Below are positions 1 to 33,963 of a stretch of 56,386 nt of DNA, piece after piece. Position numbers and translations under genes: made by a program. The stretch comes from an uncultured Flavobacteriales bacterium (GTDB taxonomy: Bacteria; Bacteroidota; Bacteroidia; Flavobacteriales_C; GCA-002722245). The notes under the pieces were generated by a model. It made no database searches. It was not told the origin of the DNA and saw only the letters and a program-made list of their open reading frames with translations. Where the stretch lies: contig CAJJCC010000028.1 in NCBI GenBank assembly GCA_905182585.1, positions 1 to 56,386 of the forward strand, written 5' to 3'. The first letter of the stretch is position 1; each line of letters opens with the position of its first letter.

Positions 1-49
1 TTCAGGTTGTATGGTATGAAAGAAAAAAGAGTGCCTCTCCTTTTTTAAG

Positions 50-390
50 AAATCATCTGTTGTTGTTGTTGTTCCCATATTCACGTCATCCAGAGCGCAG
101 CGTGGGATCTTTAAGTAATTGCTTAAAGTTTCGGCAGTCGTGCCTCCTTCTGAATGACGGTTTTGGTTGTTATGTCGTTTGGTTGTAATGAAAGAAAAAT
201 AGCACATCTCCTTTTTTGCATCCTCTTTTTTACGTCTCCTTTTTAATAAATCATCCGTTGCTGTTGTTGCCACCAATTTACGTCATCCAGATCGCAGCGT
301 TGGATCTTTAAGTAATTGCTTAAAGTTTCGGCAATGGTACCTCTTTCTGAATGACGGTTTTGGTTGTTGTTTCGTTTGAGTGTTATGAAA
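50..390. repeat. Degenerate tandem repeat (period about 197-198 nt), each unit carrying a REP-like palindromic element (84-159 and 281-356)
   Basis: AAATCATC at 50 and 248. CGTCATCCAGA..GCAGCGT.GGATCT...CTGAATGACG at 84-159 and 281-356. Identical central near-palindrome CTTTAAGTAATTGCTTAAAG at 109-128 and 306-325. Bases 1-49 resemble the unit tail (ATGAAAGAAAAA..CTCCTTTTTT), so the array probably continues left of the window. Confidence 0.85.
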
Positions 391-537
391 TTGTTTAATC
401 AGCGCTCCTTTTTGTATTGTGGTTGCAGATAATTAATACATTTTATTAAATGAACAGGAATCTTAAGGCGTAAATGATGAAAATTAAAATTTAAGCAGAG
501 GTCGTAACTGAATGCCGAGTTAATTTTTATAACTGAG

Positions 538-1101
538 TTATTTCTCGCTTTTAGAGTCGTCTCTTTTCTTATCTACTTCCGGATCCATTAACATTCCAGT
601 ACATAAGCAATGTTTACGTTCAGTTCGGGTAAGGATGTCATAATTAACGCAAGATTGGCACCCTTTCCAGAATGATTCATCATCTGTTAATTCACTAAAC
701 GTAACTGGGCGGTAACCGAGTGCTGAGTTAATTTTCATAACGGGTAGAGAAGTAGTTAACCCGAAAAGTTTTGCGTTGGGGAACTTGGATCGTGATAACT
801 CAAATGCCTTGTTTTTAATTTCTTTGGATAATCCTTTGCCTCGGTAATCTTCGTTTACAATTAACCCAGAGTTGGCAACGTACTTGTCATGTCCCCAGGA
901 TTCGATGTAACAAAAACCAGCAACAATTTCGCCGTCGAGTGCAATGATAGCTTTACCCTCTTGCATTTTTTGAACGATGTATTCGGGCTTACGCTTAGCG
1001 ATTCCAGTCCCTCTCTTTTGAGCAGCATCTTCAATCATGGTCACAATTTTATTTGCGTACTTTGTGTGATCTTCGTTTGCTACTTGTATATCGATTGCCA
1101 T
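538..1101 (-). CDS. argA: GNAT N-acyltransferase, Bacteroidota-type N-acylglutamate synthase (ArgA-like, BT3761-type family)
   Basis: RGTGIAKR N-terminal motif, VANSGLIV..YRGKG acyl-CoA loop, FGLTTS, C-terminal FWKGCQSC...CLCTGM. This family usually heads Bacteroidota arginine operons. Confidence 0.75.
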   Translation of the reverse strand: MAIDIQVANEDHTKYANKIVTMIEDAAQKRGTGIAKRKPEYIVQKMQEGKAIIALDGEIVAGFCYIESWGHDKYVANSGLIVNEDYRGKGLSKEIKNKAFELSRSKFPNAKLFGLTTSLPVMKINSALGYRPVTFSELTDDESFWKGCQSCVNYDILTRTERKHCLCTGMLMDPEVDKKRDDSKSEK

Positions 1102-1155
1102 TGTGTGCTGTTTAATTCTTGTTAATAGGTTGAATTGTTTTCGTTAAATACGAAT

Positions 1156-1233
1156 TTAGGCCCTTGATGGCCTGCGGTTTCTAATCCTATTAAGAATGCT
1201 TAACGCAATGATATGTTGAGACGCACTTTTCAT
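1156..1233 (-). CDS. Putative Arg-rich leader peptide MKSASQHIIALSILNRIRNRRPSRA (25 aa)
   Basis: ATG at 1233-1231, TAA at 1158-1156. Five Arg codons in the last 10 positions. Lies between the promoter box at 1244-1251 and the argA-like start at 1101. Confidence 0.65.
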   Translation of the reverse strand: MKSASQHIIALSILNRIRNRRPSRA

Positions 1234-1243
1234 TAGTGAAGTG

Positions 1244-1251
1244 CAAAAATA
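1244..1251 (-). promoter_or_regulatory. Bacteroidota primary-sigma -7 box (TATTTTTG) for the leader/argA transcript
   Basis: Exact TAnnTTTG match 10 nt upstream of the leader ATG. Confidence 0.65.
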
Positions 1252-1317
1252 CGGATTATTTTTAAAAGTTGTAAGGAGCTGTTTAAAACAGTTGGGAAAT
1301 ACATTGAAATAAAGAGC

Positions 1318-2064
1318 TTATCGGGTTAAAACGATGTAGTCGTTGAGGACTTTTTTTAGAAATTCGGTACGTTTTTTGGGTACTTTTTTAATGTCCAATT
1401 CGGCGCAAATTTTTTCGGCTAATTTTTGGAGTAATTTACGGTAATGATCGTTTGGATTAGATCGGGCTCGGTCGAGGGTGTTTTTAAGCAACAGCATATC
1501 TTCCTCGGTAAACTTAACAACGGCTTCGTATTTTGGTTTGTAGTTTTCTTGTGTTTGAATTTTCAATAAATCCTTAATCGACATTTGATTTCGAGGGTTG
1601 GTTTTAATCACACAAGTATCGCCAACTAAATCCCCAATTCGTTGGTTTTTTTCGTTACTCATAATGGTAATTACAGCAACACTTCCTGCAGACAGCATAA
1701 TATCAATCAACCTAAACATCCATCGCATTCCAAAATCACCAATGTGCATTTGCTGCCCGTCGGCGCGCACTACTTTTATTCCCATGGCTTTTTTGCCAAT
1801 TGATTGTCCGTTAAACAGCGACTCGGAAACCAAATGATAGCTCATAATGACAGGGAAAATTAGGAATACGAAGATTAAAAAAGGAATGGTGTTTTCACCA
1901 AATTCACCAATGAAATTTGTGGCGATTAATAACCAAAAAATCACAAAACAATAAACGGTAACAATTAAGCTGTCTAATAAAAAAGCGAGGAGCCTTTCCA
2001 TTATACCTGCTAATTCATAGTCGATAGTGACGTTTTGAGTCGTATTTATGCTAATTGATCGCAA
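1318..2064 (-). CDS. RDD family membrane protein
   Basis: ISINTTQNVTIDYELA, ERLLAFLLD, GQSIGKKAMGIKVV, NQRIGDLVGDT motifs. Start revised to TTG at 2064; the upstream 25 codons are not family-like. Confidence 0.85.
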   Translation of the reverse strand: MRSISINTTQNVTIDYELAGIMERLLAFLLDSLIVTVYCFVIFWLLIATNFIGEFGENTIPFLIFVFLIFPVIMSYHLVSESLFNGQSIGKKAMGIKVVRADGQQMHIGDFGMRWMFRLIDIMLSAGSVAVITIMSNEKNQRIGDLVGDTCVIKTNPRNQMSIKDLLKIQTQENYKPKYEAVVKFTEEDMLLLKNTLDRARSNPNDHYRKLLQKLAEKICAELDIKKVPKKRTEFLKKVLNDYIVLTR

Positions 2065-2150
2065 TGGATGACCAATATAGTAAGAAATATCACAAATAAT
2101 TTTGCATTGATGTGTATAAGTACCAATTTTGAGCTTCAATACTACAAGAG

Positions 2151-4043
2151 TTGAGGGAAACCACTTTTATACGTCAGAAAAAGAAAAGCTGGCAAAAGTT
2201 TGAAGAAATGCAGCGAAGACAAGGATCAGACCCTGATGAGTTGACACGTCTTTTTGTGGAAATTACTGATGACCTTAGCTATTCCCGTACTTTTTACGCC
2301 AAACGATCGGTAAGAGTTTATCTTAACTACCTAGCACAGCTTGTGTTTTTTAAGGTAAACAAGAACAAAAAAGTTAAAATAAAACAATTTTTTAGTTTTT
2401 GGACGACAGGTTTACCCATGGAATTTGCTCGAAGTTGGAAAGCGATGCTTTTTGCTGTATTGATCTTTTTTGGAGCGATGACCGTTGGAGTTGTATCCAC
2501 GATGAATGATATTGGATATGCCGAAGAAATTATGGGCGCGCAGTATATTAGGATGACCGAAGAGAATATAGCAAATGGCGATCCTATGGCGGTTTACCAT
2601 CAACACGGAAGTGCAGGGGAGTCCACTTTTATGCTTACACAAAACAATACTCGTGTTGCTGCATTAACCTATACATCGGGTATTTTGGCTGGTTTACCTC
2701 CCATTATTATTATGGTGAAAAATGGAATAATGATGGGGACGTTTCATTATTATTTGTATTCCAAAGATGTGCTCGTGGATTCGATGTGGGTGGTTTGGAT
2801 TCATGGTGTTTTAGAAATATCTGCGATTGTAATTGCCGGTGGTGCTGGTTTGGTATTGGGTGGTGGATTAATTTTTCCTGGAACTTTCACACGATTACAG
2901 TCTTTGAGAATAAGCGCTAAGCGAAGTTTTAAAATTGCATTAAGTACTCTTTTTATTTTAATTATATCCGGTTTTATTGAAGGAAGTGTTACCCGGTTTA
3001 CGCAAATGCCAATGGGGGTAAAGTATCTGTTGGTGTTGGGATCGTTGGCGTTTATTTGTTTTTACTTTATTGCCTATCCTATTTACTTATACAAGACCAA
3101 AATTCAAACGGGGAAATTTGTTTTTGAAGATAAGATTCCGCACAATCCAACGGGTAGAGTTGAGTTGGAAAAAGTAAGAGAAATAGGTGAAATGTTTAAT
3201 GATTCGTTAAATATTTTTCGGCAAATATTTCCGACGGTTGCAAAATGTTGGTTAGCGCTCTCCTTTCCAATTTTAATTGGTTTAATTGTGTTTCACTTTG
3301 GATTTGCTACTGAATTTAATAAAGAACTTCTTTGGTGGATTAGTATTACCGAATTTTTCACTGTAAATGAATCCATCTGGATTAACCTGAGTTTTTTTAT
3401 GGCTTTAATTATTCCGTTATTTCTCAGTGCCTATTATGCTTTGCAGCAGTATCGTAACAAATGTGCGTTTGGATTAATTGAGTTTTATACGTTTGCAGTG
3501 AAGGGGATTTTAAAGGTATGGCCACTGTTATTGTTTTTGGTGCTTTGTATTTTAGTTGCGCATCCTTTACTTCTTGTGGCGTTCATGGTTTTATGTCCTT
3601 TTATATTTCAGTTTAGTTATTTGGGATTTTATAAAAAAGACACTTACAAAAACAGTTTAAACGACGGTAAAAAGCTGGTGTTTAAATCGTGGTTTGGATC
3701 GGTTGGCTTTTTTATGATTCAAATGACCATTCCGCTATTGTTAATGCTGGCGGCATACTTTTTATTTGGTGAACAAGGCATGGGAATAACCGATTTTGTT
3801 GTTGAATTTATTTTAGAGCATATTTCTCCTTTTGTAAACGACATCGCACCGTTTGCTAACGCCCTTAATTTTGGATTGTATTATATTATTTTTTCAATTG
3901 TACTCACATTTGTAATTGTTGGAATGGCGATTCAATTCCACTCGGTAAGAGAGCGGATAGAGGCGCACAGTTTATATAATAGATTACAAGATTTTGGTAC
4001 AAAACACAACCTTTTCGAACAAATAGATGAAGGTGAATATTAA
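2151..4043 (+). CDS. Stage II sporulation protein M (SpoIIM/DUF95) family membrane protein with an extra C-terminal multi-TM domain
   Basis: MRETTFIRQ start, TDDLSYSRTFY, GDPMAVY, NG..MG, WIHGVLEISAIVIAGGAG, FIEGSVT motifs, followed by about 300 more hydrophobic residues. Confidence 0.85.
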   Translation: MRETTFIRQKKKSWQKFEEMQRRQGSDPDELTRLFVEITDDLSYSRTFYAKRSVRVYLNYLAQLVFFKVNKNKKVKIKQFFSFWTTGLPMEFARSWKAMLFAVLIFFGAMTVGVVSTMNDIGYAEEIMGAQYIRMTEENIANGDPMAVYHQHGSAGESTFMLTQNNTRVAALTYTSGILAGLPPIIIMVKNGIMMGTFHYYLYSKDVLVDSMWVVWIHGVLEISAIVIAGGAGLVLGGGLIFPGTFTRLQSLRISAKRSFKIALSTLFILIISGFIEGSVTRFTQMPMGVKYLLVLGSLAFICFYFIAYPIYLYKTKIQTGKFVFEDKIPHNPTGRVELEKVREIGEMFNDSLNIFRQIFPTVAKCWLALSFPILIGLIVFHFGFATEFNKELLWWISITEFFTVNESIWINLSFFMALIIPLFLSAYYALQQYRNKCAFGLIEFYTFAVKGILKVWPLLLFLVLCILVAHPLLLVAFMVLCPFIFQFSYLGFYKKDTYKNSLNDGKKLVFKSWFGSVGFFMIQMTIPLLLMLAAYFLFGEQGMGITDFVVEFILEHISPFVNDIAPFANALNFGLYYIIFSIVLTFVIVGMAIQFHSVRERIEAHSLYNRLQDFGTKHNLFEQIDEGEY

Positions 4044-7534: not shown

Positions 7535-8875
7535 TTGAAAAAAAATAATTTCATATCAAATTTGTACTTAACCAACTGGTTTTTTCTATTGTTAGCGATA
7601 GCTTCTTTGATTTTCATCGTGAGCTTTTTGTTTGATCCGTTGTTCTTTTTTGCACAGTTATTTTTAGCTTTTGTAGTTTGTTACTTGTTGCTTGATATTT
7701 TGATCGTTTACAGTAGCTCTACAAAATTAGAAGCCAAGCGAGAGCTGAAAGAGCAACTGAATTTGGGCGATGATAATCACGTGAAGATTTATATTCAGAA
7801 TCATCATAATTTACCGGCGATATTGAAGGTAATTGATGAGATTCCTTATCAATTTCAAATTAGAGATTTTTCTCGATTTCTCACCTTAAATCCAGGGGAA
7901 AGCAGAACGCTGGATTATTACGTTAAACCTGTAAAAAGGGGAGCTTATAAGTTTGGATCGTTGAATGTGTTTGTAGGTTCTTTTTTAAGAATGGCACAAC
8001 GAAGGGTTAAATTTTCGCAGGATTTTGAAGCGAAGGCTTATCCATCAGTTCGATTAATGCGTGAGTTTGAACTAAAAGTGTTTACGCATTCGAACCTTTC
8101 TCAAGGGGTTAAAAAAGTTAGACGATTAGGGAATAATCAAGAGTTTGAACAAATCAAACCTTATGTTCAGGGAGATGATTTTAGAAAAGTAAATTGGAAA
8201 GCTACAAGTAGGAAAGGGGAGTTGATGGTAAATCAATACCAAGATGAGCGTTCGCAAAGTATTTATTCGATTGTAGATAAAAGTAGAGCGATGAAGATGC
8301 CGTTTAATGACATGACGCTTTTAGACCATAGTATTAATTCAACTTTGGTAATTTCTAACATTGCGCTTAGAAAGGATGATAAAGTTGGTTTATTGACGTT
8401 TTCGGATAAGTTGGGAGTTCACGTGAAGGCAGAGAAATTAGGTGGGCAGTTGAGGAAACTAATGGAAAACCTTTATCGTCAGAAAACAAGATACAATGAA
8501 GCGAATTTTGAAATGCTTTATTACGGTGTTCGTCAAAACATAAAGGGAAGAAGTTTAGTGTTTTTATATACCAATTTCGAAACGATGTACGCAATGGAAC
8601 GTGCGCTTCCTATGTTACGTAAAATAGGGAAATTACATTTATTGGTTGTGGTTTTCTTTGAAAATACTGGTTTGATTGAACGCGCAGAAAGTAAGGCTTT
8701 AACAATAGAAGATATTTACACGCAAACAATGGCTCAAAAAGCGGTAATTGAGAAACAAACAATTGCGGCTGAGTTAGAGAAGTATGGAATAAATACGATT
8801 TTGACTACTCCTGAAAAATTAAATGTGGATACGATTAATAAGTATTTAGAGTTGAAATCAAGAGGGGCAATTTAG
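7535..8875 (+). CDS. DUF58 (vWA-like) protein, MoxR partner
   Basis: EFEQIKPYVQGDDFRKVNWKATSR...VNQYQDERSQ motif; N-terminal TM pair; directly follows moxR. Confidence 0.9.
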   Translation: MKKNNFISNLYLTNWFFLLLAIASLIFIVSFLFDPLFFFAQLFLAFVVCYLLLDILIVYSSSTKLEAKRELKEQLNLGDDNHVKIYIQNHHNLPAILKVIDEIPYQFQIRDFSRFLTLNPGESRTLDYYVKPVKRGAYKFGSLNVFVGSFLRMAQRRVKFSQDFEAKAYPSVRLMREFELKVFTHSNLSQGVKKVRRLGNNQEFEQIKPYVQGDDFRKVNWKATSRKGELMVNQYQDERSQSIYSIVDKSRAMKMPFNDMTLLDHSINSTLVISNIALRKDDKVGLLTFSDKLGVHVKAEKLGGQLRKLMENLYRQKTRYNEANFEMLYYGVRQNIKGRSLVFLYTNFETMYAMERALPMLRKIGKLHLLVVVFFENTGLIERAESKALTIEDIYTQTMAQKAVIEKQTIAAELEKYGINTILTTPEKLNVDTINKYLELKSRGAI

Positions 8876-33444: not shown

Positions 33445-33963
33445 ATGGAATTTGATAAATTTGTAATCGGTTTCGAGGCACTTGAGTTAGGTGAATACAA
33501 CTATAATTTTTTAGTTGACGATGCGTTCTTTAACGATTTAGAGTACGCTGAAATTCAAGGAGGGGAAGTGATTGTTGGTGCAGTTTTGAGGAAATCAGAA
33601 CGTTTAAGCCAAATGGAACTAAACTTTGAGGGAAAGGTTGCGGTGCCTTGTGATCGTTGTAGTGAGGACGTTACATTGCCAGTGAGCTTTACGGAGTCAC
33701 TGATTGTGAAAGTTGGAACTGAAGACAATGAAGACGAAGGCTTGTTAATACTTGATGAGAATGATATTGAGTTTGATATCAGACATTATTTATACGAAAG
33801 TATAAGCTTGAGTTTACCAACGAGAAGAATACATTCTGAAGATGGTGATGATAAAGGTTGTGACGAAGCAATTTTATCAATGCTGAATCAGGATTATGAA
33901 AAAGAAAATAACGACGAAGATAATATCGACCCAAGGTGGTCGGCATTGAAGAATTTAAAATAA
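33445..33963 (+). CDS. yceD: YceD/DUF177 family protein
   Basis: CDRC, terminal DPRWSALKNL; directly upstream of rpmF. TAACTTTG box at 33415-33422. Confidence 0.9.
   Translation: MEFDKFVIGFEALELGEYNYNFLVDDAFFNDLEYAEIQGGEVIVGAVLRKSERLSQMELNFEGKVAVPCDRCSEDVTLPVSFTESLIVKVGTEDNEDEGLLILDENDIEFDIRHYLYESISLSLPTRRIHSEDGDDKGCDEAILSMLNQDYEKENNDEDNIDPRWSALKNLK

Follow-up and report, generated by a model that had tools for sequence, protein, structure and literature searches.

The 56,386-nt stretch of DNA analysed here (hereafter the window; contig CAJJCC010000028.1 of assembly GCA_905182585.1, from an uncultured Flavobacteriales bacterium) carries on its minus strand an argA-like gene for an acetyltransferase of the GNAT family, which is directly preceded by a short open reading frame (ORF) whose arginine (Arg) codons are crowded at its end. 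We consider it probable that this leader is an arginine sensor read by the ribosome, which controls the GNAT gene in a lineage devoid of the arginine repressor ArgR. Judged from its sequence features the leader would be translated, and stalling on its Arg codons would raise GNAT expression: the ORF is predicted to be nearly leaderless, and its mostly rare AGG codons close to the end may slow ribosomes when charged tRNA-Arg is scarce. The output is not a classical intrinsic terminator in the window.

A promoter box of the TAnnTTTG (-7) type (TATTTTTG, 1251-1244; all features of the locus lie on the minus strand) is followed, after 10 nt, by the leader ATG (1233-1231). The leader ORF (1233-1156) comprises 25 codons and a TAA stop codon (1158-1156) and encodes the peptide MKSASQHIIALSILNRIRNRRPSRA. 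Its Arg codons form a cluster at 1188-1162 (AGG 1188-1186, AGA 1182-1180, CGC 1176-1174, AGG 1173-1171 and AGG 1164-1162) and correspond to codons 16, 18, 20, 21 and 24 of 25, with five Arg in the final 10 codons. The sequence AGGCC (1173-1169)-ATCAAG-GGCCT (1162-1158) forms a hairpin (hairpin 1, 1173-1158) that overlaps Arg codons 21 and 24 and whose terminal base is the T of the leader stop codon. A spacer of 54 nt (1155-1102; A 48%, C 20.4%, T 24%, G 7.4%) separates the leader from the GNAT gene (1101-538, 187 aa, Pfam PF00583). The original prediction, made from the sequence of this stretch, had described the promoter box, the 10-nt gap, the 25-codon ORF and the five Arg codons, and we recovered each of them to the base; the AGGCC/GGCCT hairpin at the stop codon and the G-poor spacer are likewise present where it had placed them.

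The leader is conserved among relatives of the organism. Arg makes up 3.3% of the codons in the long ORFs of this genome, making five Arg in 10 codons rare; a lone small ORF (sORF) with such a cluster could still be due to chance, and it is the conservation of the frame that decides against chance. A GNAT orthologue was present in 21/21 genomes of the family, and an open leader frame with terminal Arg codons preceded it in 16 of them, representing four genera (examples of the family peptides are MNGVSQHIIATNILLRIRMRRSSKA, MKGASQHIIKLVVLNRIRIRRPARV, MFLKTKHIANKLPSFTRPNRPSRRPHGGIC and MLNYTSISLSIISIIRPRPL). The frame was also open in related metagenome sequences (L183-L186, L191, L192 and L252), including the most divergent leader of the window's type (MKSVFQHIVAFSILNRVRNLRPSMA in L186). 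AGG at codon 16 was invariant in 8/8 aligned window-type leaders. The mean pairwise difference among leaders of this type was 0.25, 0.33 and 0.40 at codon positions 1, 2 and 3, respectively, and 0.50 in the alignable part of the spacer.

Beyond the family, named genomes were searched and the best 80 of 592 relatives retained; Arg-rich leaders occurred in those with the labels Flavobacteriales, Flavobacteriaceae, Cytophagales families, Dyadobacter and Balneolaceae. Dyadobacter sp. 32 (L105), Salegentibacter (L101), Autumnicola patrickiae (L080) and Splendidivirga corallicola (L095) are among the named carriers of the element. An even sample of the phylum comprised 401 genomes, 167 of which carried the GNAT gene. 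Among the matches listed, 76 GNAT upstream regions were evaluated, representing 73 of 84 matched genera (one genus three times, another twice). A region was scored positive if it contained, at most 300 nt upstream, an ATG-initiated sORF of 10-60 codons with at least three Arg among the final 12 codons. Leucine (Leu) and serine (Ser) served as controls because each has six codons, like Arg, and the shuffled sequences preserved dinucleotides. Arg-rich sORFs were found on the sense strand at 40 of the 76 loci, compared to 4 on the antisense strand and a mean of 7.0 (maximum 13) in shuffles; the sense-strand numbers for Leu and Ser were 12 and 5. The corresponding values for the 21 family genomes were 13 for Arg in sense, 2 in antisense, a mean of 0.6 in shuffles, 5 for Leu and 4 for Ser. 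At many loci the leader ended in a run such as PRRR, RRRP or RRRF directly before the stop codon. Approximately six of the 36/76 loci that scored negative carry a candidate that starts with a codon other than ATG or is shorter than 10 codons. The enrichment is specific for Arg and for the sense strand across the relatives, and the conserved short ORF with terminal Arg codons that had been predicted upstream of GNAT orthologues was found in Flavobacteriales-, Cytophagales- and Balneolales-labelled records as well as in many unnamed genera.

The presence of the leader is linked to the absence of ArgR. The C-terminal domain of ArgR (PF02863) was found in 0/21 family genomes (completeness of 90% or more in 15 of them) and had no match in the window's own genome (74% complete); the same domain was detected in 8/14 named control genomes, including Bacteroides thetaiotaomicron. 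In the 401-genome sample, ArgR was present in 164 genomes and GNAT in 167, with only six genomes carrying both (one of them with a weak match), such that 161/167 GNAT genomes were without ArgR. In Bacteroidales-, Marinilabiliales- and Paludibacter-labelled records, the place of the leader immediately ahead of GNAT is taken by the 3' end of argR. Five of the 76 loci stem from ArgR-bearing genomes, and these are the five with argR directly upstream of GNAT; the leader was found in none of them, compared to 40/71 loci of ArgR-less genomes. The expectation that the leader would go along with the absence of argR was thus borne out, both in the family and at the five ArgR loci.

The codon choice of the leader was compared with that of the genome. 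In this genome (G+C content 33.7%; 718 long ORFs), AGA accounts for 50%, AGG for 11% and CGC for 3.8% of the Arg codons, whereas 42 of the 65 Arg codons found across 18 distinct family leaders are AGG. Only 17 tRNA genes were recovered from this metagenome-assembled genome. Rare Arg codons are read as a starvation-sensitive gauge in rbfL of Staphylococcus aureus (PMC13009471), and by analogy the AGG excess of the leaders would fit the use of a starvation-sensitive rare codon. The excess is partly forced, because AGG pairs with CCU stretches.

A genome-wide scan for amino-acid-rich sORFs yielded one clear further case, a trp leader (MMLTNNNSWWWHAL) on contig C27, located approximately 160 to 118 nt upstream of position 33648 (plus strand) and before a trpE-like gene. 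Its promoter-to-ATG region (TATATTTG, followed by 4 nt and the ATG) is built like that of the arg leader, and its terminator (AAGCUUGCAG-GUCA-CUGUAAGCUU, a 10-bp stem) is followed by U10. Because the same genome thus holds a near-leaderless trp leader with a canonical terminator, the lack of a terminator behind the arg leader is informative. The minus strand of contig C20 further contains the sORF MTTTTSTLKF (five Thr in eight codons), 183 nt ahead of a 218-aa ORF at 7757 (start MNILIHGLFF...VLKKGGVIIYPTDTVYAF); the start of this ORF looks like a motif of threonylcarbamoyl-AMP synthase (TsaC/Sua5), and the sORF is perhaps due to chance.

The product of the GNAT gene matched an N-acetyltransferase model of NCBIfam with a score far under the cut-off; from what is known of the family and from gene context, it is presumably the N-acylglutamate synthase of the arginine pathway. 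In relatives, the GNAT orthologue is directly followed by argG-argC-argD (argD-type transaminase); the NCBIfam matches were made on L022, and gene sizes and order are alike in L022-L026. In the window's own genome, argG-argC-argD is located on contig C52 (2618-7219), past a divergent menC-like gene, and likewise in other genomes of the genus. The argG gene on C52 has a TAnnTTTG box of its own (TAACTTTG) and a short 5' untranslated region (UTR) with a small hairpin. The original picture, in which the leader controls the arg transcript, needs one correction: in this genus only GNAT follows the leader, and argG-argC-argD have a separate promoter without a leader.

In most relatives shown, a -7 type box lies 5-10 nt ahead of the leader ATG. 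Transcription in Flavobacterium johnsoniae is reported to start 4-5 nt past the -7 element (PMC6847099), and from this rule we infer a 5' UTR of 5-6 nt for the arg leader mRNA. Contigs assembled from RNA libraries extend from leader codons 6-25 across the spacer and the GNAT gene into the adjoining sequence (X1, 304-1216, and X4, 816-1216, from the same study). As metatranscriptome contigs, which cannot reveal start, strand or a single transcript and may reflect DNA carry-over, they are compatible with a start upstream of 1216. Positions 1217-2141 are covered by no contig of X1, X2, X4 or X5, and X2 and X5 end at 1184, beside a strain variant at 1185. Contig ends were dropped as evidence for the start site or for a silent upstream gene, as contigs can prove neither a start nor an absence.

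Next we considered how ribosome stalling might be converted into a change of expression. Two scans of 1102-1251 revealed no hairpin followed by a U tract. A ribosome was modelled with its A site on each Arg codon in turn, and on the stop codon, by masking a footprint of -15 to +12. Pairing of a weak hairpin behind the stop codon (hairpin 2, TTCGT-ATTTA-ACGAA, 1154-1140, -1.3 kcal/mol) had a probability of 0.46 in free RNA and of 0.61-0.83 with a ribosome at the Arg codons. The window is thus without a terminator, and a ribosome at the Arg codons weakens no downstream hairpin, which agrees with the earlier proposal of an element without a classical attenuator. A classical 1:2/2:3/3:4 attenuator was rejected for the window, as pairing of the post-stop hairpin was not lowered by the ribosome, nor was it lowered in most other loci. 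Hairpin 2 sits where other lineages carry a much stronger, covarying hairpin. By a lenient scan, a hairpin with a U-rich tail was found in 33/68 leader loci at varied positions; strong cases with Arg codons in the 5' arm were L101 (-19 kcal/mol, with UUUUCUUUU), L142 and L095.

Folding of the entire 156-nt leader RNA gave -30.5 kcal/mol, compared to -20.6 +/- 3.3 kcal/mol for shuffles (z = -2.96; 1/200 shuffles as stable). Hairpin 1 alone (-8.4 kcal/mol, z = -1.33 versus shuffles) was only modestly above chance and showed no covariation among the closest relatives, in which a single base had changed, in the loop of L186 (pairings of the window's type were compared by eye; the spacer resisted alignment by MAFFT). 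In many lineages the last Arg codons lie in one arm of a hairpin and the stop codon in the loop or the other arm. A 42-nt window centred on the stop codon had a mean z of -0.66, with z < -1 in 20/60 loci, compared to a mean z of +0.15 and z < -1 in 6/60 for a control window, the initial 42 nt of each leader. The covariation that had been anticipated is missing from the window's type, and the excess of structure across lineages is modest; for hairpin melting as the control step, which had been suggested as well, no consequence was found. A search of window positions 1-2500 against Rfam 15 (E <= 10) returned only two chance matches to lncRNA (long non-coding RNA) entries elsewhere, and eight leader loci (including L080, L087 and L101) gave 0 matches at the gathering threshold.

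Rho-dependent attenuation, which the original prediction had also named, is compatible with the locus. A rho gene is present in the genome (628 bits versus a cut-off of 509 bits). The leader Arg codons lie 1-9 codons ahead of the stop codon and are followed by the G-poor spacer, whose C-G skew was reached by 4.5% of 555 54-mers from upstream of genes in the same genome. C exceeded G in the spacers of 56/67 leader loci, and C-rich spacers may serve otherwise. Rho attenuation gated by an upstream ORF (uORF) is established for tnaC, speFL and cruR (PMC12360218). Provided that the sensor is real, the output we would favour, with clear reservation, is that a stalled ribosome and a second one queued behind it shield the 5' RNA and deny Rho access to leader and spacer; approximately 45 nt of RNA would then stay naked, compared to approximately 130 nt after release. 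A somewhat lesser chance is given to ribosomes on the leader that would hold the GNAT start region unpaired, and a rather small one to a non-canonical terminator or a pause at hairpin 1.

Several observations weigh against the leader as a sensor of this kind, or against the output that it would need. We found no output device: there is no terminator in the window, hairpin 2 is insensitive to the ribosome, and the GNAT start stays closed. Opening of the GNAT start cost 5.9-7.6 kcal/mol when the ribosome occupied an Arg codon and 6.6 kcal/mol in free RNA. The masking itself is ordinary, with shuffled leaders giving 4.27 +/- 1.75 kcal/mol (5/40 reaching 6.6 kcal/mol) and 150 other genes a mean of 6.03 kcal/mol (37% at or above 6.6 kcal/mol). 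As to the Rho step, the spacer is just 54 nt long, the leader ORF does not contain more C than G (16 G and 15 C in 78 nt), and the C-rich spacers of other lineages contain CACUCA-like repeats beside the start codon that could serve translation; moreover, uncoupling from RNA polymerase would be greater, not smaller, under a stall. The distribution of the leader is patchy as well, since it is missing in 5/21 family genomes (three of the window's genus and both of genus g5) and 31/71 ArgR-less loci score negative by the fixed definition. No leader ORF precedes argG on C52, where argG-argC-argD have their own promoter, and the leader of the window's genus precedes only GNAT, as opposed to GNAT-argG-argC-argD in the sister genus g3. 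The genomes are related and hence not independent, and the leader figures given above are therefore counts, not probabilities, which overstate the support.

The peptides add a further point of this kind. Histidine (His) occurs at residues 5-9 in 17/47 leaders (overall His content 2.1%) and is usually followed by isoleucine (Ile), and Arg-Pro is recurrent (RRP, or RRRP before the stop codon). These conserved non-Arg residues are more than plain codon sensing needs. At least part of the Arg-Pro recurrence stems from the RNA, in which AGG-CCN or CGC-CCG builds an arm of hairpin 1. His mostly sits 8-9 residues ahead of the Arg that opens the cluster, and at the DNA level a CAYAT-like motif lies approximately 20-25 nt past the ATG.

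The most serious alternative retains the sensor and assigns the output to translation: leader codons 7-16 would pair with the spacer and the first GNAT codons, and stalled and queued ribosomes would hold the GNAT start open in an ermC/cat- or rbfL-like manner. Leader codons 7-10 (ATATCATTGC, 1214-1205) are complementary to GNAT codons 2-5 (GCAATCGATAT, 1098-1088), with a predicted duplex of -12.1 kcal/mol (10 bp, one bulge), and leader codons 12-16 (CATTCTTAATAGG, 1198-1186) form an inverted repeat with spacer positions 1129-1112 (CCTATTAACAAGAATTAA) that appears as a helix in the predicted folds. The energy for opening the GNAT start dropped from 6.6 kcal/mol in free RNA to 2.0 kcal/mol with the A site at codon 10, and was lowered for codons ~5-13. 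Relatives retain such pairings with changed sequences: an AGG-bearing stretch pairs with a CCU-bearing stretch of the spacer in L003, L004, L005 and L186. Examples of retained pairings are AUUCUUUU with AAAAGAAUG in L003 and L005, and CAUUCUU with AAGAAUG in L186. A ribosome at the first Arg codons lowered the opening energy in L003 and L005 and partly in L007, and no terminator is available as another explanation. However, the GNAT start of the window stays closed whichever Arg codon the ribosome occupies, the queued second ribosome is pure conjecture, and the masking lies within the range of shuffles and of the genome. The effect is also largely limited to this family among the 54 loci profiled by ribosome position (14 of 68, with RNAs longer than 300 nt, were left out), and one large family is open throughout (1.5-3 kcal/mol). 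We therefore regard a translational output as possible but doubtful. Start unmasking by a ribosome at the Arg codons themselves, as it was not seen in the window, was kept only in this form with a queued ribosome.

A more far-reaching proposal appears improbable to us, namely that Bacteroidota which have lost ArgR regulate arginine synthesis by a family of nearly leaderless sensor ORFs, in which the ribosome itself senses arginine by means of conserved peptide features (His/Ile at residues 6-9, terminal Arg-Arg-Pro) and a stop codon placed in a tetraloop. This would constitute a new class of attenuation, without terminator or Shine-Dalgarno sequence, and not a codon-counting version of trpL. 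Its output would proceed via Rho or another RNA element, for example one of the conserved hairpins whose loop is UAYGY or AGGUGAGUCC. The organism's group is reported to initiate without use of Shine-Dalgarno sites (PMC6847099).

Two types of spacer hairpin were observed in other lineages. Flavobacteriaceae-type loci carry the hairpin GGAAC-UUAGGUGAGUCC-GGUUCC with the conserved loop AGGUGAGUCC and a variable stem (L080, L087, L101, L122, L127, L134, L135, L140, L142, L143 and L148). Tandem Arg-rich leaders were found in the Flavobacteriaceae-type loci L080, L087, L101, L122, L127 and L134, and also in L117 and L153; the second leader of the tandem reads M-R-R-x-F-x-R-R-P/T-stop, with the stop codon within a GUAA loop. 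Cytophagales-type loci carry a 7-bp hairpin with a conserved 5-nt loop (U-A/C-Y-G-Y, abbreviated UAYGY) 12-28 nt past the leader stop codon (L034, L071, L081, L095, L102, L104, L105 and L129; 10/68 loci overall, the window not among them). In eight sequences 7/7 pairs of this hairpin were doubly changed, a count that is circular as the set was picked for the stem.

We consider it distinctly unlikely that the leader is an arrest peptide, in which conserved residues (His/Ile near residues 6-9 and a late Arg-Arg-Pro) would act in the exit tunnel and either sense free arginine or cause stalling by sequence, in the manner of TnaC, SpeFL or the fungal arginine attenuator peptide. The leader of L041, a Balneolaceae-labelled locus, bears on this reading: its peptide (MRYAKSHIIISLLSRSRYIRRPAVA) matches the window peptide in approximately 12/21 aligned residues (by eye), thus beyond the Arg codons, and its GNAT is 69% identical. 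This likeness despite the label of a distant group suggests, at the level of sequence, either transfer of GNAT together with the leader or a strong constraint on the peptide. The His residues at a fairly fixed distance from the Arg cluster, the recurrent Arg-Pro and the third codon positions, which are the most variable, also speak for an arrest peptide. Yet Arg-Pro is explicable by the hairpin 1 arm as well, the His-bearing leaders stem largely from few related families, and the leaders range from 14 to 57 codons in length and diverge widely in sequence between families. A stall on free arginine, moreover, must lower downstream expression, for which we found no device.

That the ORF is no regulator at all, whether its frame arose by chance in an unremarkable 5' UTR or specifies a small basic peptide that has a separate function, is very improbable: a lone 25-codon ORF in AT-rich DNA is weak evidence, hairpin 1 reaches a z of only -1.33 and 5/21 family genomes do without the leader, but against this stand the Arg-specific excess on the sense strand (40 versus 4 antisense and 7 shuffled at 76 loci from 73 genera), the fixed place between promoter box and first arg gene, the mutual exclusion with ArgR, the families' peptides that share little beyond terminal Arg clusters, and a trp leader of like build.

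The neighbourhood of the locus showed further features. The upstream neighbour of the leader is a gene for an RDD-family membrane protein (2139-1318, Pfam PF06271). In L019, L020 and L021 (genomes G002, G007 and G003 of the window's genus), the RDD-to-GNAT synteny is kept, the intergenic region measures approximately 110 nt and the leader ORF is absent; the GNAT proteins of these loci are 58-67% identical to that of the window (59-66% by tblastn), and GNAT of G002 is followed by a 275-aa ORF. In L023, L024 and L026, a menC-like gene (o-succinylbenzoate synthase / dipeptide epimerase family) on the opposite strand parts GNAT from argG-argC-argD. Residues C148, C151, C165 and C167 of GNAT are invariant in 13 aligned orthologues and form a CxxC...CxC pattern at the C-terminal end, outside the reach of generic GNAT models; judged from sequence, the four Cys may bind a metal or serve as an added regulatory element.

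Downstream of the GNAT stop codon, window positions 1-400 contain a tandem repeat of approximately 197 nt (units ~79-276 and 276-390, 90% identical over 115 nt) with the perfect palindrome CTTTAAGTAATTGCTTAAAG inside. Copies occur on contigs C14, C35, C26, C19, C12 and C48 with 82-93% identity, one 52-nt piece being 100% identical. The repeat probably broke the assembly here, because several copies lie near contig ends. RNA-library contigs cover it, with summed depth peaking at 75-148, and it may represent either a family of small RNAs or a miniature mobile element.

If the leader is indeed a ribosome-read arginine sensor, it would close a gap in our understanding of how arginine synthesis, a nitrogen-costly process, is controlled in a major phylum of environmental and host-associated bacteria, with more than half of the 76 loci carrying an Arg-rich leader where other orders carry argR. 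It would provide a natural system in which to study how ribosomes act as sensors in bacteria whose translation starts without Shine-Dalgarno pairing, and the lack of a classical terminator in the window points to output by Rho, by start-site masking or by something new. Genome annotation would gain as well, such leader ORFs being too short for gene finders.

Arginine biosynthesis is the textbook case of control by the ArgR repressor. The task is shared with the leader proposed here, and argR of Bacteroidales and Marinilabiliales loci occupies the leader's exact place directly upstream of GNAT; the family genomes differ in being without ArgR, and leader and ArgR are almost mutually exclusive in the 401-genome sample. 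To our knowledge, arginine stands outside the classical list of attenuated pathways. The arg leader resembles the trpL and hisL attenuators as a short ORF before a biosynthetic gene, with cognate codons near its 3' end; what is conserved of this ORF is its position more than the peptide it encodes. It differs from them in having neither a terminator nor a terminator/antiterminator switch, and its Arg residues are interspersed (R-I-R-N-R-R-P-S-R) instead of forming a clean run. For Flavobacterium psychrophilum, leader-peptide attenuation of amino-acid operons has been described, and a supplementary table lists ilvE and hisG elements; supplement file 8 of that study does not contain the word 'arginine' (PMC9723704). 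The available sections of a 26-genome survey describe Cys, Phe and other uORF motifs and none for arginine synthesis in the phylum (PMC8632094). In the full-text literature, subscription journals being outside its coverage and a prior description thus possible, we found no arginine leader peptide before arg genes in Bacteroidota.

Among other parallels, the fungal arginine attenuator peptide is encoded by a uORF that ties arginine supply to a pathway gene, sensing free arginine by a conserved nascent chain and blocking scanning, and leaderless poly-Cys uORFs of mycobacteria use cognate codons for cysteine without a classical terminator; neither is homologous to the arg leader. Like tnaC, speFL and cruR, the arg leader would have its stall site within a few codons of the uORF stop codon, ahead of a G-poor untranslated tract and with no intrinsic terminator. 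In tnaC, speFL and cruR the nascent peptide recognises a free ligand and the ribosome halts at the stop codon, whereas the arg leader would sense charging of tRNA-Arg at sense codons; the spacer is short here (54 nt), and Rho is a candidate. A further likeness is to rbfL and the speF leader, in which rare AGA/AGG codons of a short leader gauge arginine supply, as we propose here; the Arg codons of the Salmonella speF leader ORF are described as such a gauge (PMC6386406). The rbfL ORF overlaps the ribosome-binding site of its target, and stalling on it represses a biofilm regulator, outside arginine biosynthesis (PMC13009471). The arg leader, by comparison, ends 54 nt before its target, and the expected sign of its action is induction of a biosynthetic gene.

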